Virus record (IMG/VR): IMGVR_UViG_2778261165_000022
Span: 1-10,351 of that record
Source of the DNA: a virus
Lineage: Duplodnaviria > Heunggongvirae > Uroviricota > Caudoviricetes
Reading direction: 5' to 3' (one strand)
DNA length: 10,351 bases
The notes under the pieces are model-generated. The model was given only the letters and a program-made list of their open reading frames with translations, was not told the origin of the DNA and did not search any database. The position numbers and the translations under genes were made by a program. Shown one piece after another: positions 1-10,351 of the stretch. Position 1 is the first letter of the stretch; each line of letters begins with the position of its first letter.

Positions 1-1254
1 ATGCTGGAACAAATGGGCATTGCCGCGAAGCAAGCCTCGTATAAATTAGCGCAACTCTCCAGCCGCGAAAAAAATCGCGTGCTGGAAAAAATCGCCGATG
101 AACTGGAAGCACAAAGCGAAATCATCCTCAACGCTAACGCCCAGGATGTTGCTGACGCGCGAGCCAATGGCCTTAGCGAAGCGATGCTTGACCGTCTGGC
201 ACTGACGCCCGCACGGCTGAAAGGCATTGCCGACGATGTACGTCAGGTGTGCAACCTCGCCGATCCGGTGGGGCAGGTAATCGATGGCGGCGTACTGGAC
301 AGCGGCCTGCGTCTTGAGCGTCGTCGCGTACCGCTGGGGGTTATTGGCGTGATTTATGAAGCGCGCCCGAACGTGACGGTTGATGTCGCTTCGCTGTGCC
401 TGAAAACCGGTAATGCGGTGATCCTGCGCGGTGGCAAAGAAACGTGTCGCACTAACGCTGCAACGGTGGCGGTGATTCAGGACGCCCTGAAATCCTGCGG
501 CTTACCGGCGGGTGCCGTGCAGGCGATTGATAATCCTGACCGTGCGCTGGTCAGTGAAATGCTGCGTATGGATAAATACATCGACATGCTGATCCCGCGT
601 GGTGGCGCTGGTTTGCATAAACTGTGCCGCGAACAGTCGACGATCCCGGTGATCACAGGTGGTATAGGCGTATGCCATATTTATGTTGATGAAAGTGTAG
701 AGATTGCTGAAGCATTAAAAGTGATCGTCAACGCGAAAACTCAGCGTCCGAGCACATGTAATACGGTAGAAACGTTGCTGGTGAATAAAAACATCGCCGA
801 TAGCTTCCTGCCCGCATTAAGCAAACAAATGGAGGAAAGCGGCGTGGCATTACACGCAGATGCAGCTGCGCTGGCGCAGTTGCAGACAGGCCCCGCGAAG
901 GTGGTGGCTGTTAAAGCGGAAGAGTATGACGATGAGTTTCTGTCATTAGATTTGAACGTCAAAATCGTCAGTGATCTTGACGATGCCATCGCCCATATTC
1001 GTGAACACGGCACACAACACTCCGATGCGATCCTGACCCGCGATATGCGCAACGCCCAGCGTTTTGTTAACGAAGTGGATTCGTCCGCTGTTTACGTTAA
1101 CGCCTCTACGCGTTTTACCGACGGCGGCCAGTTTGGACTGGGTGCGGAAGTGGCGGTAAGCACACAAAAACTCCACGCGCGTGGCCCAATGGGGCTGGAA
1201 GCACTGACCACTTACAAGTGGATCGGCATTGGTGATTACACCATTCGTGCGTAA
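1..1254 (+). CDS. proA: gamma-glutamyl phosphate reductase (glutamate-5-semialdehyde dehydrogenase)
   Basis: 417-aa ORF from the track with TAA stop at 1252..1254. Length and sequence match enterobacterial ProA as I recall it. Window begins at its ATG. Confidence 0.95.
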
Positions 1255-1368
1255 ATAAAACCGGGTGATGCAAAAGTAGCCATTTGATTCACAAGGCCAT
1301 TGACGCATCGCCCGGTTAGTTTTAACCTTGTCCACCGTGATTCACGTTCGTGAACATGTCCTTTCAGG

Positions 1369-1444
1369 GCCGATATAGCTCAGTTGGTAGAGCAGCGCAT
1401 TCGTAATGCGAAGGTCGTAGGTTCGACTCCTATTATCGGCACCA
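1369..1444 (+). tRNA. thrW: tRNA-Thr (anticodon CGU), thrW-like
   Basis: 76 nt GCCGATATAGCTCAGTTGGTAGAGCAGCGCATTCGTAATGCGAAGGTCGTAGGTTCGACTCCTATTATCGGCACCA folds as a cloverleaf: acceptor stem GCCGATA/TATCGGC, D stem GCTC/GAGC, anticodon loop TTCGTAA (U33, CGT at 34-36, A37), T loop TTCGACT, discriminator A and encoded CCA. Sits directly downstream of proA, as thrW does in E. coli. Confidence 0.93.
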
Positions 1445-1460
1445 TTAAAATCAAGTAGTT
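1400..1460. other. probable prophage attL / integration junction at the tRNA 3' end
   Basis: The integrase stop codon (1459..1461) is 15 bp from the tRNA 3' end. tRNA-targeting integrases recombine within the 3' part of the tRNA and regenerate it. The second junction (attR) is outside the window, so core boundaries are not determinable. Confidence 0.4.
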
Positions 1461-2619
1461 ACCCCATATTTAAATACACCACGTTCTCCTCTTGTGCCGT
1501 ATTTGTGCCATTGCGACTTATAATCGCATCGATTTTGCTTGCGTGCTCGGTGAGATGCCCGGCTGAAAGGTGGGCGTATCTTTGAACCATTTCGAGAGTT
1601 TCCCATCCTCCCATCTCTTTAAGTGCAAGAAGAGAGACACCGGACTGAACCAGCCAGCTTGCCCAGGTATGCCTCAGATCATGGAAGCGGAAGTTACTAA
1701 TGCCTGCCCGCTTTAACGCTCCCTTCCATGCCTTGTTGCTGTCGGTTCTCATCTTCCTTACCGCTGCTGTTTTTGTTCCGTCGCTTCGGTAGGCAGGTTT
1801 GGTGTGGACAAATACCCATCTCTTATGGAGCCCCTGCTGTTTTCTTAATATCTGGCATGCGGTTTCGTTAAGAGGAACTCCGATCGCATTGCCAGCTTTT
1901 GTTTCATCAGGGTGTATCCATGCCATTTTCTTATCCAGATCGACCTGTGACCACTCAAGGTCTGTAACGTTGGAACGGCGAAGGCCTGTCGTGATTGCAA
2001 ACATGACCACAGGGAAGAAGTGAGGAGCAATTTCTGCAAACAGGCGCTTCGATTCCTCCTCTGTAAGCCATCTGATGCGTCCATTCTTAACGCGTGGTGT
2101 TGATATTTTGGGTGCCCTGTCAAGCCATCCCCATTCAACAGCCATATTGAGAATGGCGCGAAGTATTGCCAGATGCCTCGTCTTCGTTCCTTTGCTTGCA
2201 AGCTTTGGTTTATACTCCGGCACCGGATTGCCAAGTCGCAAACACCTGTCCCGGCTCATCTCCCAGTTCAGGCGATGGCGGCGGTTTTCCATCCCATCTA
2301 CCGCCTCCATTATTTTTTCTGTTGTTATGTCAGAGAGAATGGCTTCTCTGAAGTGCAACATCCAGAACGATATAATGCTCTTGTCATCATCAATGGACTT
2401 CTTATCCGATTTCTCACGCAGCCACCGTATGCAGGCTTCCTTGAATAGCTTTTTCGGTGATTCCCCGAGATTTTTTACTCTCCACGCTTCTGCTTTCAGA
2501 CGATCGTGAAGTTCTTGCGCTTGCCTTTTGTCCGATGTTTCAAGAGAGCGTCTAACTCTTGATCCATCTGGCGCGACGAAATCGCAGTGCCACGTGCCAC
2601 CGCGTAGTTTGATTGACAT
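1459..2619 (-). CDS. int: phage integrase, tyrosine recombinase (P22/lambda-like)
   Basis: 386-aa ORF with ATG at 2619 preceded by AGGAGG. C-terminal catalytic signature HDLRHTWASW ... VQRYAHL (His-x-x-Arg and catalytic Tyr). Placement next to a tRNA gene with xis overlapping upstream. Confidence 0.93.
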   Translation of the reverse strand: MSIKLRGGTWHCDFVAPDGSRVRRSLETSDKRQAQELHDRLKAEAWRVKNLGESPKKLFKEACIRWLREKSDKKSIDDDKSIISFWMLHFREAILSDITTEKIMEAVDGMENRRHRLNWEMSRDRCLRLGNPVPEYKPKLASKGTKTRHLAILRAILNMAVEWGWLDRAPKISTPRVKNGRIRWLTEEESKRLFAEIAPHFFPVVMFAITTGLRRSNVTDLEWSQVDLDKKMAWIHPDETKAGNAIGVPLNETACQILRKQQGLHKRWVFVHTKPAYRSDGTKTAAVRKMRTDSNKAWKGALKRAGISNFRFHDLRHTWASWLVQSGVSLLALKEMGGWETLEMVQRYAHLSAGHLTEHASKIDAIISRNGTNTAQEENVVYLNMG

Positions 2620-2843
2620 GCTTTAACCTCCTGCACATCAACCGCATTCACCGCGCTATTGTGTCTCACAGACTTAAGCGCCGCAATGCAGTCTGACTTG
2701 CAAATGCGATATGGGCTTTTAGGTTTATCTGGATTTATCTTTGCGGCCTGAAGTCGTCCACTTCGTATCCACTGCGTGATAGTGCCTTTGTCTACCTTCA
2801 GATACGACGCTGCCTCTTCACGAGTGAAGATTTCTTCTTCCAC
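2496..2843 (-). CDS. xis: excisionase-family DNA-binding protein
   Basis: 115-aa ORF whose N-terminus (EIFTREEAASYLKVDKGTITQWIRSGRL) looks like an excisionase/HTH_17 helix-turn-helix. Apparent GTG start at 2843 with GGAGA about 6 nt upstream. 3' end overlaps int by 124 nt, as is usual for xis-int pairs. Confidence 0.75.
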   Translation of the reverse strand: MEEEIFTREEAASYLKVDKGTITQWIRSGRLQAAKINPDKPKSPYRICKSDCIAALKSVRHNSAVNAVDVQEVKACQSNYAVARGTAISSRQMDQELDALLKHRTKGKRKNFTIV

Positions 2844-2933
2844 CTGGAATCTCCATTTATTGGATTGGTATTATTGCGGTAGGTCTGGATATCATTGAGC
2901 AATGAACAGGCCTCATCGAGTATGAGGCTGTGG

Positions 2934-3278
2934 TTAGTCCTTGCGTAGCTCGATGATTCTTCTGTAAGTCTCTGGTGCTTTGTTTCCGTGTATCTTCATT
3001 TCAGACTTCAACAGAGCAACGAGAGAATCCCATTCGTTGAGGATGCCTTTGAATGCCGGAACGCGCTTTGCAACCTTGTCGAATGAATCCCTGATTTCTG
3101 GAATCTGCTCGACAAGCGCAACGCATCGTCGGAAATCGGCTACATCATGTGGAGCGCCGAAGTGATGACCATAGATATTCTTTTTCAGTCCACATGCGAT
3201 TGAGGCAAGAGTTGCGCTACTGATGCCAACATCGCCAGTCGATTGCCATTTCAAAACCTTCATAGCCAAATCTGACAT
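2934..3278 (-). CDS. hypothetical phage protein (114 aa)
   Basis: Track ORF 2934..3305, but the first ATG lies inside a terminator hairpin. The ATG at 3278 (MSDLAMKVLKW...) is preceded by GGAGA at good spacing. No family recognised. Confidence 0.55.
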   Translation of the reverse strand: MSDLAMKVLKWQSTGDVGISSATLASIACGLKKNIYGHHFGAPHDVADFRRCVALVEQIPEIRDSFDKVAKRVPAFKGILNEWDSLVALLKSEMKIHGNKAPETYRRIIELRKD

Positions 3279-3290
3279 TTCTTGTCTCCA

Positions 3291-3312
3291 ATAAAAAACC
3301 GCCATCAGGCGG
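3291..3312 (-). terminator. intrinsic terminator (minus strand)
   Basis: Minus-strand reading GCCGCC-TGAT-GGCGG followed by TTTTTTAT. The hairpin contains the stop codon of the 55-aa ORF. Confidence 0.55.
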
Positions 3313-3472
3313 CTTGGTGTTCTTTCAGTTCTTCAATTCGAATATTGGTTACGTCTGCATGTGCTATCTGCGCCCATATCATCCAGTGGTCGTAGCAGTC
3401 GTTGATGTTCTCCGCTTCGATAACTCTGTTGAATGGCTCTCCATTCCATTCACCTGTGACTTTGAATTTCAT
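3305..3472 (-). CDS. hypothetical small protein (55 aa)
   Basis: Hand-translated ORF not in the track: MKFKVTGEWNGEPFNRVIEAENINDCYDHWMIWAQIAHADVTNIRIEELKEHQAA. ATG preceded by AGGTGA. Bracketed by intrinsic terminators on both sides. Coordinates approximate. Confidence 0.4.
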   Translation of the reverse strand: MKFKVTGEWNGEPFNRVIEAENINDCYDHWMIWAQIAHADVTNIRIEELKEHQAA

Positions 3473-3483
3473 TAAGTTTCACC

Positions 3484-3510
3484 TGTAAAAAAAGGAGCCG
3501 AAGCTCCTTT
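3484..3510 (-). terminator. intrinsic terminator (minus strand)
   Basis: Minus-strand AAAGGAGC-TTCG-GCTCCTTT followed by a T run, immediately after the TAA stop of the AntA-like gene (3515..3517). 8-bp stem with a UUCG tetraloop. Confidence 0.65.
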
Positions 3511-3514
3511 GATA

Positions 3515-4138
3515 TTAAAATTCGAATTGTCTCGCCCGAAGGCTTTTTAACATTGGTCTTGCCCGTTCGAAAATGGCGCTTGTCTGGTCAATTCGTGTTG
3601 CCTCCCTGAGCAATGCGTCTCTGTTTTTCGTCACCGTGTAGAAAGTCTCAAACGCGATGTCATACAGCTTGCTCGCGTATGATGAGTTCAGTTCCTTCAA
3701 TATCGGATACAGGCGTTTGCTGATGTCCTGTGCTTTCTCCATCTGTACCTGCATGTAGCAGAGGAGGATGATTTCCTCGTCTGTGAATTGCTGCGCTGGT
3801 TGCATGCTGCGAAGTTTCTTTTCACACTCGATGAAGTATCGGCGTATCTGGCGACCTTTTTCGTTACGCTCGACCATTGCCAGCTCTTTGGCTGTGTCGA
3901 GGGTGAGGTGATAGTCTTTGCTACGGCGATCGCCTCCTCGACCTTTGATTTCCCTATTTGGGGAAACCAAAATATAGTCCTGATTTTCAACGAATCCATA
4001 TTCAGCAATGCGTTCTGTAATCCACGATGCAAAGCGTTTACCTACCCCAAGAAAAGTATGTAAATCTCGAGCATTAACGAGAAGAGTGATTTCGTTGGCG
4101 ATAGTGCCGTTGAATACGGGGATGAGTTGACTGGTCAT
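3515..4138 (-). CDS. AntA/AntB-like antirepressor-domain protein
   Basis: 207-aa ORF, ATG at 4138 preceded by AAAGGA. The N-terminal segment ARDLHTFLGVGKRFASWITERIAEYGFVENQDY resembles the AntA/AntB antirepressor N-terminal domain as I recall it. The C-terminal half is unassigned. Confidence 0.6.
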   Translation of the reverse strand: MTSQLIPVFNGTIANEITLLVNARDLHTFLGVGKRFASWITERIAEYGFVENQDYILVSPNREIKGRGGDRRSKDYHLTLDTAKELAMVERNEKGRQIRRYFIECEKKLRSMQPAQQFTDEEIILLCYMQVQMEKAQDISKRLYPILKELNSSYASKLYDIAFETFYTVTKNRDALLREATRIDQTSAIFERARPMLKSLRARQFEF

Positions 4139-4462
4139 TTTTATGTCCTTTCGATTCGTTCAGATTACCCTGTGTTCAGCAGGGTGGTCAGGTACTTGAA
4201 CACCGTCGAAAGTTCGGCCCGCATCCTTAGCCTTGCGGCTGTTTTTCGGTATACGCGCTACCCGACCATATCTGAAAAATGGACATAAAAAATCCGCATG
4301 ACTGACGGGTGCGGTTTCCGCTTTCGAAGGTGTGTTCAGCACCATGAAGCGGAATATAGCCCCGTTAATGCGGATTTGTCAAATCATGTGGTCTTTATCT
4401 TGCTGTAAGCCGCGCCATTCGGTCTTTTCCCCCCAGATTTGGGGAAAACTATCTTGTCAAAA
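4139..4462. promoter_or_regulatory. structured intergenic region (candidate promoter/operator or small RNA locus)
   Basis: 324 bp without a convincing ORF. Two palindromes share a 7-nt centre with different arms: CCCTG-TGTTCAG-CAGGG (about 4168..4184) and GGTG-TGTTCAG-CACC (about 4327..4341). Two hairpins share the stem CCGCA/TGCGG, one followed by a T run on the plus strand (about 4219..4246), one followed by a T run on the minus strand (about 4287..4314). Inverted repeat TTTTCCCC-N8-GGGGAAAA at about 4425..4448. Confidence 0.4.
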
Positions 4463-5206
4463 TCATGCAGCCTTTCGTTCTCCTTCGATGAGTTCCTCGA
4501 TCTTGTGCACTCCCGCCTCGTTGTAGCGAAATGTCTCGACCTGCTTGTCACTGTGCGCCGATTTGTCGATGAACCACTTCCCGTACTTTTCTGTTTTGAG
4601 CATGTAGGTGTTGGCAATGCGCCCTACCTTGTTGGCTGAAATGCCAAGCATGGTGCCAACCTCCGACGCAGAGTAGTGATGTTCATCAATGACCGGAAGA
4701 GGGATTGCACTAAAGCCGACGACGGGATTAATCAGGCTGGCGGCAACGACCTGTTTAGCTTCCGGTGCGAGGTGAGGGAGGAAGTCGAAGAGGTCTTTCA
4801 TTGTGTCGACGGTCATTTTCAATGCGCGTGCCTTACGGAATTCTTCAAGGCCATCCGGTGATTTCTTCGTGGTCGTTTTTTGTTGCAACTGCTGTTGCAT
4901 TGATTCAAGTTTGTCGACCAGCGAACGACGGACGGCTTTCGACTCACGTGCGGCGACGCGCAGGGCTTGCTTGTAGGTCATCACTATAACCACCTGATCC
5001 GCTCCGCCTTTTTTCTTATCCATGGGGGTTACGAAAATTTCGTAACCCTCCCCCTCAAGCTCATCTTTGATGCGTGCAATGAAGTCGTTGTTGCGTACTT
5101 CTTTTTCGCCTCGCAGTCTCCGCGCCTCATTAACCATTTTCAACAGCATCTGGCTGTCAATTGTTGCAGCCGGAAACGAAGACTGATTTGCAATATTGTT
5201 AATCAT
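4463..5206 (-). CDS. hypothetical phage protein (247 aa), possible C-terminal HTH/KilA-C-like region
   Basis: Track ORF 4463..5263. The in-frame ATG at 5206 (MINNIANQ...) has AAGGA upstream; the ATG at 5263 has no Shine-Dalgarno. C-terminal SASEVGTMLGISANKVGRIAN looks helix-turn-helix-like. No confident family. Confidence 0.6.
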   Translation of the reverse strand: MINNIANQSSFPAATIDSQMLLKMVNEARRLRGEKEVRNNDFIARIKDELEGEGYEIFVTPMDKKKGGADQVVIVMTYKQALRVAARESKAVRRSLVDKLESMQQQLQQKTTTKKSPDGLEEFRKARALKMTVDTMKDLFDFLPHLAPEAKQVVAASLINPVVGFSAIPLPVIDEHHYSASEVGTMLGISANKVGRIANTYMLKTEKYGKWFIDKSAHSDKQVETFRYNEAGVHKIEELIEGERKAA

Positions 5207-5301
5207 GTATTCTGTCCTTTTCAGATAAAAGAAATCCCCGCGAGTGCGAGGATTGTTATTCATTGCCGATATTCACCTTTATCGCGAACACCTTTACCGG
5301 T

Positions 5302-5544
5302 TTATCTCCTTTGCATGGCGCGTAATTTTTTCAGATGGTTCTCCTGCTCTGTTTCAGCCAGAATTTGTCGGTATTCCTGGTGATCGATCCGTTCAAACAG
5401 TTCATTAAAATCGTTTATTTTTACCGACTGTGTTCGCCCATCCATTCTTCTGTACAACACAGTGTTGTTTATGCAGCGAAGAATTTTTATCGGGTAGCCG
5501 GCGCTATCGGTGTATATCTGACCACGTTGAATCAGAGCGAACAT
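5302..5544 (-). CDS. hypothetical small phage protein (80 aa)
   Basis: The track ORF begins with a TTG at 5598. The first ATG (MFALIQRGQIYTDSAG...) at 5544 has GGGGATAAAGGA upstream. No family recognised. Confidence 0.45.
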   Translation of the reverse strand: MFALIQRGQIYTDSAGYPIKILRCINNTVLYRRMDGRTQSVKINDFNELFERIDHQEYRQILAETEQENHLKKLRAMQRR

Positions 5545-5618
5545 TCCTTTATCCCCAGCGGAAAAGCGAATACAGAATAAATGCCACCGCGATTGCAACT
5601 CCTACAGCGGTGAATGCT

Positions 5619-6281
5619 TCAGGCCAATTCATCATTCACTCCCTGCGGCGGTTCTGGTAGCAGCATCCAGTACAAGGCGTTCCCTAACCACGATAAAGTG
5701 CCGTCGCTCAACTCCACGTATTCCCCTTGTACCTGTCCTGCCATATACTCGCCGTGCTTTGAATAAATTAAAACCCAATCGTCTTGAGCGGGAATTCGCT
5801 CACTACAGCTTATCCAACCATCCGGAATTACCGGAGAGTTGGTTGACGTTTCCGAGGTTTCCCGAAAATTATTGGTTGACGAATCCTTATTTTCCCGAAA
5901 GTTTCCAGCCTGAAGCATTGCGGCGCGGCAGGCGTTCCAGCCTCTCACCTCTGCAATAGCGGCAACAGCATCAACCGCGTACATGCTAAGAGGATTAGGC
6001 ATTGGTTTTTCTTCCGGTACTACTGGAACGGGTGGAGCGGCGTAGACTTCAATAATCCCATTATCAATAGGCCATTCTCCATCCTTGAGGTAGTCACTTG
6101 TGCCGTCAACTTTCTGTTCTGCAATGTGGAATGCACCTATTGGTTTTGCTTCCAGCGATACCAGTGCAATTCGTGCCAGTTCCTCCGCTTCTTCTGCTGG
6201 CAGTACAACGTTGCTACCCGGTCCGTATGTTTCGCGCCACTGCTTGATTGTCAGCAGTCGCTCTTTGGTTATAGTGGTCAT
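5619..6281 (-). CDS. DUF551-domain phage protein
   Basis: 220-aa ORF. C-terminal IPDGWISCSERIPAQDDWVLIYSKHGEYMAGQVQ...LSWLGNALYWMLLPEPP resembles the DUF551 domain common in lambdoid prophages. Its ATG overlaps the upstream gene's stop (ATGA), implying translational coupling. Confidence 0.7.
   Translation of the reverse strand: MTTITKERLLTIKQWRETYGPGSNVVLPAEEAEELARIALVSLEAKPIGAFHIAEQKVDGTSDYLKDGEWPIDNGIIEVYAAPPVPVVPEEKPMPNPLSMYAVDAVAAIAEVRGWNACRAAMLQAGNFRENKDSSTNNFRETSETSTNSPVIPDGWISCSERIPAQDDWVLIYSKHGEYMAGQVQGEYVELSDGTLSWLGNALYWMLLPEPPQGVNDELA
5839..5901. repeat. 33-bp imperfect tandem direct repeat inside the DUF551 CDS
   Basis: TTGGTTGACGTTTCCGAGGTTTCCCGAAAA and TTGGTTGACGAATCCTTATTTTCCCGAAAG, about 23/30 identical and 33 bp apart. 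Encodes the 11-aa repeat NFRENKDSSTN / NFRETSETSTN in the linker before the DUF551 domain. Confidence 0.6.
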
Positions 6282-6487
6282 TTGTTAATCCTCAAAACTT
6301 TATGCCCGGGCGCAAAAGCACGCGTTTTGTCTTTGCTTATTCGCCAGCCATCCTTGCGCGCCTCTTTTGCACAGCCAGCCCATGACGTACCGATATATTC
6401 ACCGAAGTCTGGCGTTTGATATTTACCATTTGTACACTGGCGACAATCACAGTAGAGATGCATGGTGTAACTTGCGGCAATAGCCAT
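6278..6487 (-). CDS. small Cys-rich protein (69 aa), possible zinc-binding
   Basis: Track ORF 6278..6649 begins with a TTG. The in-frame ATG at 6487 (MAIAASYTMHLYCDCRQCTNGKYQ...) has AAGGAG 7 nt upstream and lies 1 nt after the Ea22-like stop. Cys at positions 13, 15, 18 and 39. Confidence 0.5.
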   Translation of the reverse strand: MAIAASYTMHLYCDCRQCTNGKYQTPDFGEYIGTSWAGCAKEARKDGWRISKDKTRAFAPGHKVLRINK

Positions 6488-6488
6488 A

Positions 6489-7259
6489 TCACTCTCCTTT
6501 GATGCGAATACCAGCAGCGCGCTCGGCTTCACTTTGTTCCCAAAACCACTTGTGAAGCGCCATAAGCTTTTCGTCAATCGGTGCATATTTGCGATTAAAG
6601 TAGGCCTGAGCATCTTTCTCAGATTCGTCCGGTAATTCGCCAGGGCCAAACAGTGTGTTATAAATCCATGCTAGTCCGCTCTTAGCGTCGCCAGTTGCCT
6701 GCCATTCGATAATGGCAGCCTGCATGACCAGAATGTTTTTCCCGATTAATAGGTCCAGTTCTTTGTACCGGTTGCGGATGTATGCATTCTCGCTTTGTAA
6801 TTTTGCGTTGCGCTTTTCTGAGGCTTCAAGTAACGCCTGCTTATCGCGTAGCGCTTCTTCCAGTTCAGCAACATGGCATTCACTATCAATAAGGTTGTTC
6901 TCTGCTGCTTCAAGCTCAACACGCAGCTTCCCAACCGTAAGCGCAATCTCCTCGTTCTCCTGGTCGCGGCGTTTGATGTATTGCTGGTTTCTTTCCCGTT
7001 CATCCAGCAGGGCCAGCGCAACATTTGGATTAAAAGCAGCAATAAATTCAGCGTTTGCATAAGCCTGAACATCTGTTTCAACTAGGCAGTTAACATGACA
7101 TTCCGCAATCACACCACCGGGTTCTCCTTTCCATTTTTGGCAAACAAAAACTCCTGTTAAATTGCCGTGCTGGTTAACAGATGTATGCCCTACGATGTAG
7201 CTTCCTTTAGTTGCTTTCTCTGCCTTTTCACGCAGTGCCTGATAATCAATCTTGCTCAC
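6489..7259 (-). CDS. Ead/Ea22-like family protein (coiled-coil)
   Basis: 256-aa ORF, GTG start with AGGAGG 6 nt upstream. N-terminal [14 protein letters not shown] and a long Glu/Leu/Arg-rich central helix resemble the Ead/Ea22-like proteins of lambdoid prophages as I recall them. Confidence 0.65.
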
Positions 7260-7423
7260 TGGTTGCCTCCTTTGCGCAACATCGCATTCAGATATTTGTT
7301 GTCATTAACAGAACCGAAACTATTTCCCTTAAGCAATTCCTCTCTCGATGGCATTGGCTTTACGCGTTGGCGAATAATCATTTCTGCTGGAAGAATGCCG
7401 GGATTGTATGCAAGTCCTCTCAT
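7256..7423 (-). CDS. hypothetical small protein (55 aa)
   Basis: Hand-translated: [58 protein letters not shown] preceded by AGAGGA. Its stop overlaps the Ea22-like GTG start (GTGA). Coordinates approximate. Confidence 0.4.
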
Positions 7424-7439
7424 GGTAAATTCCTCTTTG

Positions 7440-7754
7440 TTAATTTATTCGTATGCCTTCTCTTTCTTCATCGAGTTTTTTTAGCTTGTATCGCATAGCT
7501 CTTACTGAATAAATTGAGCGGCAGGTTGCAATTGCTATTTCTTCTGCGGAGAACTTACCGAAAAGTGATACTTCGGCTCTTGTCCAGCGTCTTCCACGAA
7601 GTCGGCTAACAATGTCAGCGCCAATCCTTGTTGCTTTCGCCATTACTGCTTTCTCAGTCCTTTCCAGTTTTTCAGCGATAACTTCAACTGGCATTGTTGC
7701 CGCTACTTCGCGCAAGAAATCTACTTCCCATTTCTCCCAAGGAGTCTTTTTCAT
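7440..7754 (-). CDS. hypothetical protein (104 aa) with two internal HTH-like repeats
   Basis: Track ORF with ATG at 7754. Two similar segments, [32 protein letters not shown] and [32 protein letters not shown], share a W-x-x-E-x-x-L...IA pattern reminiscent of GcrA-type helix-turn-helix repeats. Confidence 0.5.
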
Positions 7755-7765
7755 AGGCGATACCG

Positions 7766-8248
7766 TTATTTGATAAGAAGTGAAGGTTTCCCAACCTTGA
7801 GTTGAGCGCCTGGGATATTTATTCCTGCTTTTAGTTGGTGCTTGATTGCCAACTTGTCGGCTTTAATTGTCGTTTCAAACTCAACGTATTCAGGAGGAAG
7901 GGCGCTTGAGTCGATGATTTCTACAGTTTCTGACGGTTTGCGGATTGTTACCTGGTGAATACCTGCTCGAATCTTTTTCTTGCCAACCATTTCAAGCGAT
8001 GACGCTATATATGATTTGATGCTGTCAATCTTATTTTGAATTACTGCGGCTCGCTCATTCAGCGACTTTGCCTCTTCCTTGAGGCGTTCAGCATAACCAG
8101 ATTCATTTTTAATAATGGCGAGAAGTTGCTCTATTTTATCGGTAAATTCTCCTTCCATGCCTTCTATTGTGTCAGCAATCATCTCTGGATCTAAATCTGA
8201 ATCCATCAATTTTGCGTATTCATTGGCTATTTCATATAGTTTGCTCAC
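7766..8248 (-). CDS. Siphovirus Gp157-like protein
   Basis: Track ORF 7766..8254 begins with a TTG. The GTG at 8248 has GGAGG 6 nt upstream. Sequence pattern (LYEIANEY..., DTIEGMEGEF, GKKKI, VTIRKPSETVEIID, LPPEYVEF, AIKHQLKAG, PGAQL) matches my recollection of the Gp157 family that often accompanies RecT. Confidence 0.65.
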   Translation of the reverse strand: MSKLYEIANEYAKLMDSDLDPEMIADTIEGMEGEFTDKIEQLLAIIKNESGYAERLKEEAKSLNERAAVIQNKIDSIKSYIASSLEMVGKKKIRAGIHQVTIRKPSETVEIIDSSALPPEYVEFETTIKADKLAIKHQLKAGINIPGAQLKVGKPSLLIK

Positions 8249-9143
8249 TGGCAACCTCCAGTTTCGCTTTGCATTCTATGTAAATGGCTTGTACGTTCTG
8301 CTGTAATTTCATTCCAGATGTTAGGCGATATGCTTCTGCAAAATATCGCTTCAAATCATCCATGTTTTCTGCCTGAGCCATTTCATCGCAAAGAAGTTGT
8401 ACTTTATCCATTATTTCCTGCTGGCGTTTCCGTTCATCTTCGCGGATATCTTCCTCTGATTTGTGCGGCATAACTGGTTCAGTCCACACACCTTCTTCTT
8501 CGTTTAGTACGTGAATAGCACTATCAAGACGTGATGCCTTAGGCCAATACTTGCTTGCACGCTTTACGACCGTCTTTCGCGCCATCTCATTCCAGTGATT
8601 TACCCATGGTCCTTTATCGCTGAATGCTGCCTTGCTTGTTTTCCTTACAGCCTCAATTTCAGCCAGACTCATCTCTTCCGTTAGATAATCACCTGCTGGC
8701 GTCTTAACTGTGCAGTAAACGCCAACGATATCACCACGATCACCGAAGGCGTTGTATTTATGGGTTGGTGCTTTATCAAGCCCGTTTGACTCATAGGTAT
8801 CGTTAGCATGAACAAGTTTTGCCTGACCCCATGAGATAACACCAGACTCCATTGCAATATGGAGCAATCCCATATAACTGATATCAAGGCAAACCATGCC
8901 GTCGCGCGGAACCAGATAAGCCAGTTTGCTGGCCGGGTTTAAGGTGATGCCGATCGCCGCAACATTGATGATGGCGTTCTGTGCGCTGGTTGGATTTGCC
9001 AGTGCCGTTTTAGCCAGGTAATCGTTTTTCTGGAAATACTGAATTGCAAACTGGCTTTCCTTAGCCCATGTCACCGTCTGTTCAGTCAATGCTCCGCAGA
9101 ATAACTGCTCTTGCTGTTTAACGAATTCAACGATATTGCTCAT
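8232..9143 (-). CDS. recT: RecT-family single-strand annealing recombinase
   Basis: 303-aa ORF, ATG at 9143 with GGAG 8 nt upstream. The motif GPWVNHWNEMARKTVVKRASKYWP closely parallels GPWVTHWEEMAKKTAIRRLFKYLP of Rac RecT. ATGA overlap with the upstream gene. Confidence 0.85.
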   Translation of the reverse strand: MSNIVEFVKQQEQLFCGALTEQTVTWAKESQFAIQYFQKNDYLAKTALANPTSAQNAIINVAAIGITLNPASKLAYLVPRDGMVCLDISYMGLLHIAMESGVISWGQAKLVHANDTYESNGLDKAPTHKYNAFGDRGDIVGVYCTVKTPAGDYLTEEMSLAEIEAVRKTSKAAFSDKGPWVNHWNEMARKTVVKRASKYWPKASRLDSAIHVLNEEEGVWTEPVMPHKSEEDIREDERKRQQEIMDKVQLLCDEMAQAENMDDLKRYFAEAYRLTSGMKLQQNVQAIYIECKAKLEVASEQTI

Positions 9144-9451
9144 GCAGCTTCTCCAAAAATGTGTCTGCGTTTGAATATTGCGAAGGCATATTCAGCCTTA
9201 ACTCTTTCGGTTATTGCATCCCAGAACCATTCAGCGGCTTTTTCCTGATAGTTACAATCATCATCTTCCAGCCAGTCGATAGCATCCTTAGTATGTTCAT
9301 CTGGTTTATATGAGCGAAGCATTTCGCTTATTGGGTCGCAACGTTTGCAGAGGCGATCAACTTCACTGTTGATTCGTTCGTAATCTTCATCAGTAAAACT
9401 TGCGATAATTTGCGATATTTCACGCTTATCATTCAGAGTCAGAATCATCAT
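9140..9451 (-). CDS. hypothetical acidic phage protein (103 aa)
   Basis: Track ORF with tandem ATG ATG at 9451 and GGAGA upstream. Rich in Asp/Glu. Translationally coupled to recT. Confidence 0.55.
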   Translation of the reverse strand: MMILTLNDKREISQIIASFTDEDYERINSEVDRLCKRCDPISEMLRSYKPDEHTKDAIDWLEDDDCNYQEKAAEWFWDAITERVKAEYAFAIFKRRHIFGEAA

Positions 9452-9532
9452 CTTTCTCCTGTTCTTTGTGCTGATTGAGCATTTTGTTCATCTGACGAAT
9501 GAATTCTTCGTCTGACCAGTTATCTGTAAAAC

Positions 9533-9685
9533 TCATTTCCTGCGATACCACGGAAGGTTGATAGCTGATTTCATCGCTTTATTTGCTTCAAGCCACATTT
9601 TTGAATCACCAATAAATCTGGCTATTACTGCTTTGTTTTGTGCAGCACGAAGCATCTGGTGATTGATGGCTATTTCATTGCGCAT
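9533..9685 (-). CDS. hypothetical small protein (50 aa)
   Basis: Hand-translated: MRNEIAINHQMLRAAQNKAVIARFIGDSKMWLEANKAMKSAINLPWYRRK. ATG preceded by GGAGG at 5 nt. Coordinates approximate. Confidence 0.4.
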   Translation of the reverse strand: MRNEIAINHQMLRAAQNKAVIARFIGDSKMWLEANKAMKSAINLPWYRRK

Positions 9686-9804
9686 AACGCCTCCAGTTGT
9701 TTCTTTGCTGCTCTGATTAATTGTTTAACTCGGCGTGATAATTCAGATTCGTGCGGGTAGAAAGCGGACATGACGCCGCTACCCGCGAGCTGAAAGTGCA
9801 TCAT
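9670..9804 (-). CDS. hypothetical small protein (44 aa)
   Basis: Track ORF 9670..9855. The in-frame ATG at 9804 (MMHFQLAGSG...) has AAGGAG about 7 nt upstream. 3' end overlaps the next ORF's start by 16 nt. Confidence 0.4.
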   Translation of the reverse strand: MMHFQLAGSGVMSAFYPHESELSRRVKQLIRAAKKQLEALCAMK

Positions 9805-9887
9805 GGGTAACTCCTTATATTTGATTGCATAACGAAAACGCCTCAAGTGAAGCATTATTGGTATGCGGTAAAGCCGCGCTTGGCGGC

Positions 9888-10225
9888 TTATTTGAAGACT
9901 TCTATGAAATCAAGAACTGATGATATTTCGTGGTTGAATGATTTTCTTTTATATCTTTCTATCGCAGAATCTACCTGGTGTTTATAGTCATCGTCGTTTG
10001 AGTATTTAACGAAGCATTCTATTGTCTCAGGCGTTACAGCCATAAGGCTCCACCAACCTTCATCAGATTGATATTCAAATCCCATGCTTTCAAGCCATCC
10101 AGCATATTTCCCTCCAGCATCTTGCCAGTGAGTCTTTTCTGCAAGAAAACTGTTAACCGTCATATGTGCATCAAGGCATTTATCCAACTGTTTACCATTA
10201 AGCAGCCATGCGCTGACAGTTGCAC
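9888..10225 (-). pseudogene. prophage early gene, probably truncated at its 5' end by IS2
   Basis: Track ORF 9888..10253 begins with a TTG inside the IS2 terminal repeat. The first native ATG (MTVNSF..., 10163) has no Shine-Dalgarno. The frame stays open up to the IS2 boundary, consistent with loss of the true N-terminus. Confidence 0.45.
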
Positions 10226-10351
10226 TAGACTGGCCCCATGAATCTCCAGACAACCAATATCACTTAAATAAGTGATAGTCTTAATACTAGTTTTTAGACT
10301 AGTCATTGGAGAGCAGATGATTGATGTCTTAGGACCGGAGAAACGCAGACG
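10226..10351 (+). mobile_element. IS2 (IS3 family) left end, partial; continues beyond the window
   Basis: TAGACTGGCCCC.TGAATCTCCAGACAACCAATATCACTTAAATAAGTGATAGTCTTAATACTAGTTTTTAGACTAGTCATTGGAG matches the IS2 left terminal region as I remember it, followed by the insC start. Confidence 0.8.
10317..10351 (+). CDS. insC: IS2 OrfA transposase (InsC), N-terminal 11 codons only
   Basis: ATG at 10317 preceded by GGAGAG. Translation MIDVLGPEKRR matches the InsC N-terminus (MIDVLGPEKRRRRTTQEK...) from memory. Confidence 0.75.
   Translation, partial: MIDVLGPEKRR

Follow-up and report, generated by a model that had tools for sequence, protein, structure and literature searches.

A stretch of 10,351 nt (IMG/VR record IMGVR_UViG_2778261165_000022, positions 1 to 10,351; hereafter the window) contains a lambdoid prophage of Escherichia coli integrated at thrW. 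An earlier note on this DNA had flagged the five genes between the excisionase gene (xis) and the DUF551 and Ea22-like genes (block 2934-5544) as the likeliest seat of an undescribed defence or anti-defence system. As a candidate of that kind the block is ordinary, and the real finding is the spacer in front of its AntA-type antirepressor gene (antA). To judge from its sequence, this spacer is the functional core of the block, which the note had missed: it would contain a promoter, a leader RNA and a small RNA (sRNA) of the sRNA-Xcc1 family and, with antA and the terminator behind it, would form an autonomous unit. We put at about 0.72 the probability that the spacer RNA is an antisense switch of the P1 immI or Gifsy-1 IsrK type, built on a different RNA family and controlling antA.

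The spacer occupies 4139-4462, exactly the 324 bp previously given, and its structured nature is borne out by two lines of evidence: a 222-nt stretch folds at -71.3 kcal/mol versus -56.0 for shuffles (z = -3.3), and an Rfam family matches within it above its gathering score. All the elements of the cassette lie on the minus strand. The predicted sigma-70-like promoter (4353-4382; TTGACA, 18 nt, TATATT) agrees with 11 of 12 consensus positions, is the best sigma-70 match in the window and retains its -35 TTGACA also in the other leader class of related loci. The leader RNA (4287-4345, with its 5' end placed from the promoter) comprises a 5' hairpin (4343-4329) containing site a1 UGAACAC (4338-4332), a single-stranded stretch with site b1 UCGAAAG (4327-4321) and CGG, and lastly CCGCA/UGCGG (4314-4294), a terminator hairpin with U6 behind it (4292-4287). 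sRNA-Xcc1 (RF02221; 4178-4267), detected with the Rfam covariance model at 64.3 bits against a gathering score of 53 and over model positions 1-87 of 87, stops 40 nt short of the antA start codon on the same strand. The loop of its hairpin 2 holds site b2 CUUUCGA (4212-4206) and its 3' junction site a2 GUGUUCA (4203-4197). In the target region before antA (4139-4178), site a' UGAACAC (4178-4172) is the complement of a2, and site b' UCGAAAG (4154-4148), the complement of b2, overlaps the antA Shine-Dalgarno AAGGA (4150-4146) and ends 9 nt before the ATG. Each sRNA site is therefore complementary to two others, b2 to b1 in the leader and b' at antA, and a2 to a1 and a'. The predicted sRNA-leader duplex (-54.8 kcal/mol) is far stronger than the sRNA-target duplex (-26.3 kcal/mol).

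No Rfam family matches the leader in the window, and no RNA annotation covers it in the 12 records listed, even though leaders of the window type are present in 122 of 5426 complete E. coli genomes. A 61-aa open reading frame (ORF) over leader and sRNA (4160-4345) was taken as spurious, since the region varies as paired RNA stems do. A role of LexA at the antirepressor promoter was also considered and discarded, as no CTGT-N8-ACAG occurs in the spacer even when one mismatch is allowed. The stop codon of the preceding 247-aa gene is followed directly by a 9-bp hairpin (4425-4448, UUUUCCCC(C)-loop-GGGGGGAAAA, -11.4 kcal/mol), which stands close before the cassette promoter and is without a U-run on the minus strand.

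The arrangement is not peculiar to this prophage. Of 80 AntA loci taken from viral contigs, 78 have an sRNA-Xcc1 that stops about 40 nt short of the AntA start, and in the remaining two the Rfam families isrK and C4 stand at the same position, before an AntA whose first 144 residues are 80% identical (in locus L071, 61.2 bits for C4 and 67.7 bits for isrK). The loci with sRNA-Xcc1 fall into 12 specificity classes, in which the hairpin-2 loop, the Shine-Dalgarno-proximal site and the leader site change together (loop/complement examples: CUUUGAAG/CUUCAAAG, CUUAUUUG/CAAAUAAG, CCUAUAUU/AAUAUAGG and CUGUUUGU/ACAAACAG). One class retains the downstream pairing via a G-U pair, which argues that the pairing takes place at the RNA level, since such a pair would be expected in RNA but not in a DNA repeat. 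Different classes are found on prophage contigs of one host genome and in tandem modules, in a small sample of three genomes plus the tandem loci. These tandem promoter-leader-sRNA modules stand about 535 nt apart in some phage contigs (L052-L054, L056 and L062, at about 838-1460; L048, L049, L057, L064 and L066-L069), always with different b-site classes, and in L053 all that the first module drives is a 94-aa N-terminal fragment of AntA. The module is also present in a viral contig of 60,942 bp (L040) that appears to be VT2-Sakai. In L059, group II intron domains (2246-2532; Rfam D1-D4-3, 135 bits, and D1-D4-1) immediately follow the AntA gene.

The same rule can be followed into distant bacteria. 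Using a conserved 21-nt pattern of the sRNA we found loci in Pseudomonas, Xanthomonas, Pasteurellaceae, Bartonella, Azospirillum, Neisseria and Desulfovibrio, and in metagenome-assembled genomes of Acidobacteria, Bacteroidota and Planctomycetota; a covariance model then recovered 81 copies. MAFFT with RNAalifold gave a poor consensus for the sRNA, and the covariance-model alignment was used instead. It describes a closing stem around two hairpins, with compensatory changes at 21 of 23 base pairs (78 distinct sequences) and 90.7% of the cells paired, versus 73% in shuffles and 42-54% when the pairing was slid. Across 77 distinct loci, a run of at least seven Watson-Crick pairs joins the loop to its own downstream region in 53% of the cases (2.6% with mismatched partners) and to its own upstream region in 82% (5% with mismatched partners), and not one of 2000 permutations gave a mean as high as that observed. 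For 32 of 41 loci, the distance from the end of the downstream site to a following ATG is 7-11 nt. The gene immediately downstream belongs to the Bro-N, Rha, P22_AR_N, AntA, ORF6N or KilA-N type in 35 of 64 loci and encodes a SymE toxin in another five. In one of the SymE-type loci (L140) the loop CUUCGAG pairs with a CUCGAAG that ends 9 nt before the ORF, and some Pseudomonas loci have a short ORF before a Bro-N gene, the site there overlapping the sequence at which ribosomes would bind for this ORF.

This co-variation bears on the role under which sRNA-Xcc1 has been described. The literature calls it, in Xanthomonas, a trans-acting RNA linked to HrpG/HrpX, and some genomes, such as Xylella, hold several copies; both facts would suit a regulator of host or other phage genes whose proximity to antA is incidental, and the published description also counts against the switch proposed here. 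Such a regulator would nevertheless be hard to reconcile with a loop that co-varies with the ribosome-binding region of the next gene in 12 AntA classes and across phyla, with a position fixed relative to the start codon, and with C4 taking its place at the same site. We regard it as quite unlikely that the RNA acts only in this way, and a trans role alongside the local one is possible.

The leader shows that conservation extends upstream of the sRNA. In 52 of the 64 distant loci it has the layout of the window, namely the upstream site, then CGG, then a hairpin with a U-run that precedes the sRNA by about 40 nt. The arms of the terminator hairpin covary (CCGCA/UGCGG, CCCACC/GGUGGG, CCAAC/GUUGG, UCAC/GUGA and GCCUU/AAGGC), and so do the stems of the 5' hairpin, which shows a1 in its loop (GGUG/CACC, GGAG/CUCC, GGCG/CGCC and GAGG/CCUC). 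The terminator loop carries a motif, CCCG(A/U)NAG (4309-4299 in the window; alignment A8), that is constant across phyla while the stem arms covary, which suggests that the loop makes an additional contact, to a protein or to RNA. An antiterminator (GCGG-N-CCGC) opposing the leader terminator fits the E. coli classes but fails in others, for example the CCCACC class, and is not claimed.

Considering that one transcript carries all these elements, the spacer might work purely in cis, as an attenuator or translational switch between alternative folds from which no separate RNA acts. The minimum-free-energy fold of the whole leader does pair the a1/b1 segment with the 3' half of the sRNA, and co-variation cannot tell cis from trans. 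We nevertheless consider a purely cis-acting device improbable, if the more serious of the two RNA alternatives. The terminator and U-run conserved between the leader sites and the sRNA in the 52 loci predict a separate short RNA, a conserved N-C-C-(C/A) tail follows the closing stem of the sRNA, and in the analogous Gifsy-1 system IsrK acts in trans. Tails of this kind resemble the 3' ends of the c4 and CI RNAs, which are processed by RNase P.

For the antisense switch that we favor, we infer the direction of control by analogy with P1 c4/immI, P4 CI and Gifsy-1 IsrK/STnc1160. The cassette would be read in the order own promoter, terminator-ended leader, sRNA-Xcc1, antA and terminator, and transcripts reading through the leader terminator would give rise to sRNA-Xcc1, presumably by processing. 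By binding a' and b' the sRNA would occlude the antA ribosome-binding site and block translation, keeping the prophage quiet. Since the leader carries the same sites (a1 and b1), it would compete for the sRNA, either in cis or as a short terminated RNA in trans, and this competition would set a threshold for AntA synthesis and prophage induction.

Several further points weigh against this proposal. The leader terminator of the window is weak, with a stem of 5 bp and -5.8 kcal/mol. Between 2800 and 5700 of the window C4 (RF01695, gathering score 45 bits) has no match even at E <= 1, and neither the leader nor any other part of that interval matches isrK (RF01394) at the same threshold; membership of the RNA in either family is thus rejected, and any kinship with them is one of topology and logic, not of demonstrated homology. 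The window has no short leader ORF like icd of P1 or orf45 of Gifsy-1, and none lies between b' and antA. The prophage repressor, the presumed target of AntA, is outside the window. Finally, 47% of the distant loci lack a loop run of at least seven pairs downstream, possibly because they pair with gaps or through G-U pairs or have another target.

The cassette is closed by one of three intrinsic terminators that the earlier note had placed in the block and that hairpin folding energies on the minus strand uphold. The first lies after the 80-aa gene and before the 247-aa gene (5233-5254; a 9-bp stem, then UUCUUUUAU, -13.1 kcal/mol). The second follows antA (3487-3510; AAAGGAGC-UUCG-GCUCCUUU, then UUUU, -11.5 kcal/mol) and was overlooked by a consensus scanner because A-U pairs at the base of the stem take up part of the T run. 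The third follows the 55-aa gene, whose stop codon is in its loop (3296-3315; an 8-bp stem, then UUUAUU, -13.4 kcal/mol). The hairpins at 3510-3487 and 3315-3296 flank the 55-aa gene, so that it is indeed bracketed by terminators on both sides. A fourth hairpin, after the 114-aa gene (2928-2910), is without a good U-tract. In lambdoid biology the N-modified pL transcript would have to read through all these terminators to reach xis and int, and for this reason the idea that they insulate the block as one unit does not hold. More plausibly, they stop unmodified transcripts, notably those that start at the cassette promoter and head into xis and int; the terminator after antA would thus keep such transcripts out of these two genes.

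The position of the block in lambdoid prophages is known for accessory cargo, and the description of the interval as accessory, mosaic and punctuated by terminators proved correct. Pieces of the block are present in 3072 of 5426 complete E. coli genomes and the entire block in only 13. No complete E. coli genome in the collection carries 80% of the window at one place, so that the exact combination is rare while each piece is common. A prophage adjoining sbcB, with a different integrase and an AlpA-type excisionase, carries the whole block at 99.8% identity. The Shiga toxin (Stx) 2a phage WGPS6 carries four of the genes, two of them annotated as anti-repressors, and in many Stx2a phages the block is reduced to the 247-aa gene, the spacer and the beginning of antA. 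Three related thrW prophages retain int, xis and the 114-aa and 55-aa genes, and the segment from the 55-aa gene to DUF551/Ea22 differs in each of them, so the block is not invariant. On the basis of this partial distribution, the copy beside a different integrase and the variable segment in the thrW prophages, we conclude that the block is several independent accessory cassettes in the leftward early operon and not one system.

A single undescribed defence or anti-defence system, whose genes would act jointly and be insulated by the terminators, could draw on some of the same observations, namely the accessory position, the variation among related prophages and the recurrence of the whole block beside another integrase, and also on the fact that three of the proteins are of no known function. 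It is nonetheless highly improbable. With PADLOC-DB 2.0 none of the five proteins matched any model at E <= 0.1, existing PHROG families cover all five, and domain searches found no enzymatic domain in any of them, as the earlier note had stated. The genes assort independently, the 114-aa and 55-aa genes staying with xis while the rest is replaced; the reduced set of the Stx2a phages and the scarcity of the complete block point the same way, and two of the genes are of antirepressor families, with a dedicated regulatory RNA. Nothing marks the other four block proteins as a system.

The five genes are all on the minus strand at the coordinates first assigned to them. Their start codons are those used by the Prokaryotic Genome Annotation Pipeline (PGAP) in an identical copy of the block, giving proteins of 114, 55, 207, 247 and 80 residues. 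The AntA-like identity of the 207-aa protein (3515-4138) is secure: it passes the gathering threshold of Pfam AntA (PF08346; E = 2.3e-28, 99 bits against a cut-off of 27), also matches P22AR_C (PF10548; E = 2.4e-08, 34.4 bits against 22.4) and hits phrog_377, 'anti-repressor Ant', with E = 8.5e-95; antirepressor activity is predicted. The 247-aa protein (4463-5206) is of an antirepressor family, and fold comparison supports the C-terminal helix-turn-helix (HTH) that had been considered possible, a winged HTH of the MerR/RacA/excisionase type; the match is confined to this domain of about 60 residues, the N-terminal half having no informative fold match. An alternative ORF of 266 aa for this gene starts at 5263 and would cross a terminator. 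The 80-aa protein (5302-5544) belongs to DUF4222 (PF13973; E = 1.2e-15, 57.2 bits against a cut-off of 27) and to phrog_285, and PGAP annotates an identical gene as a DUF4222 protein. The 55-aa protein (3305-3472) matches phrog_676 (E = 4.5e-39).

For the 114-aa protein (2934-3278; an alternative ORF of 123 aa extends to 3305) we obtained a confident all-helical model, with a predicted local distance difference test (pLDDT) score of 93.7; its fold has no counterpart among solved structures, and its only matches are uncharacterised viral proteins. A sequence search of solved structures with this protein, the 247-aa protein and AntA gave no significant match. The family of the 114-aa protein is narrow, and its members often appear joined to early-region proteins of other kinds, which indicates frequent recombination; in P0135, P0137, P0152, P0156 and P0171 the partners are dATP/dGTP pyrophosphohydrolase, ERF, Ea22 and Kil, and these fusions inside the gene look like recombination junctions or assembly chimeras.

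The window starts with proA (1-1254), followed by the tRNA-Thr gene thrW (1369-1444). Past thrW the prophage genes run on the minus strand in the order integrase (1459-2619), HTH_17 excisionase (2496-2843), flagged block, DUF551, Ea22-like and RecT. The excisionase and integrase ORFs overlap by 124 nt (2496-2619), and the same overlap is found in the PGAP annotation of related prophages. Residues 145-243 of the Ea22-like protein (6489-7259, minus strand) match the PADLOC model 'DpdH' (PDLC02890) with E = 1.8e-36, over model positions 13-111 of 127, and Pfam finds only Ead_Ea22, in the N-terminal half. Either a hitch-hiking phage domain may have served to build the DpdH model, or both proteins may genuinely share a module.

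The sRNA-Xcc1 family and the c4/IsrK principle are each already known, and one GenBank record of an Stx phage labels sRNA-Xcc1 beside an antirepressor gene. In a literature search with subscription journals mostly outside its reach, we found no paper that links the two. Papers on sRNA-Xcc1 present it as trans-acting and linked to virulence, or place it upstream of a symE or ORF6N gene without explanation, and it is absent from the antirepressor-controlling sRNAs named in a 2025 review of phage sRNAs. The link matters, as antirepressors decide the exit of prophages from lysogeny, those of Shiga-toxin phages included. Phi24B provides an example, since its ant gene, which adjoins int, promotes induction and its deletion impairs induction (PMC3064807). 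Should the switch be real, an Rfam family treated as a trans-acting 'virulence' sRNA would gain a concrete and testable role, its presence before SymE toxins in Xanthomonas integrons and before ORF6N genes in APSE phages would be accounted for, the c4/CI/IsrK principle would be widened from a few model phages to several phyla, and the b site would be a simple sequence code predicting cross-talk between prophages.

A broader proposal can be advanced only tentatively, and we hold it to be possible rather than probable: sRNA-Xcc1 and its leader might be a widespread, re-addressable switch that guards antirepressor and toxin genes of mobile elements and serves as an RNA channel between prophages. 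The b (and a) sites would then be an address code in use in several bacterial phyla, and co-resident prophages would stay independent because they carry different addresses. An incoming element with the same address could titrate the antisense RNA of the resident, triggering or blocking induction, so that prophages would come into conflict, or communicate, by way of RNA. On this view the leader, whose terminator loop keeps a conserved motif, would represent a new RNA family.

Four known systems can be compared with the cassette. In Xanthomonas integron cassettes sRNA-Xcc1 (RF02221), the family in which the curated score places the RNA of the window, lies upstream of symE, and the rule that the loop pairs with the ribosome-binding site holds there too. 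Here the RNA would be a local antisense regulator of the next gene, unlike the trans-acting, virulence-linked RNA of unresolved mechanism described in published work. In Xylella fastidiosa Temecula1, five copies of sRNA-Xcc1 stand in a row with a spacing of about 381 nt within a genomic island (1,313,466-1,315,082), and in strain De Donno sRNA-Xcc1, isrK and C4 are adjacent within 400 nt (PMC12189769). These arrangements suggest switch arrays and a combined use of both RNA types.

The immunity system of satellite phage P4 (CI RNA; seqA, seqB and seqC), compared by description only, resembles the window in that a processed RNA pairs with sites up- and downstream on the same transcript to bring about immunity, but it controls premature transcription termination of replication genes and not the translation of an antirepressor. 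The isrK locus of Gifsy-1 (IsrK, STnc1160/orf45 and anrP; RF01394) is closer. There, translation of anrP from the read-through transcript is activated in trans by short IsrK, which is required for induction of Gifsy-1 (PMC4825925). Both loci have a promoter and a short RNA ending at an intrinsic terminator, with a hairpin that shows a1 in its loop, then b1 and then the terminator; read-through yields, and in the window would yield, a downstream structured RNA plus the antirepressor mRNA, and the short RNA shares complementarity with that downstream RNA. They differ in that the isrK model misses the leader of the window, whose terminator loop has its own conserved motif, and in that the window has no coupling ORF of the orf45 type.

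The closest parallel is the immI region of P1 and P7 (c4, icd and ant; Rfam C4), where c4 RNA makes a ribosome-binding site ahead of ant inaccessible (2025 review of phage sRNAs). The window differs from it in that the Rfam C4 model has no match there, in a closing stem of 9 bp versus 17 bp in C4 and a longer hairpin 1 with an internal loop, in having no icd-like ORF, so that b' abuts the antA Shine-Dalgarno directly, and in belonging to a lambdoid prophage, where the cassette adjoins int and xis. The short ORF ahead of Bro-N in Pseudomonas recalls icd of P1 and orf45 of Gifsy-1. In both P1 and the window an antisense RNA lies upstream of its target on the same transcript, carries address sites a2 and b2 with complements upstream (a1 and b1) and downstream (a' and b'), and has b' covering the ribosome-binding site, with an antirepressor gene downstream. 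The two RNAs also agree in topology, each with two hairpins inside a closing stem, the second hairpin presenting b2 in its loop, with a2 placed in the 3' junction and with a CC-rich 3' tail. Moreover, C4 itself occupies the same place before a homologous AntA gene, and the specificity variants recall the heteroimmunity of P1 and P7.

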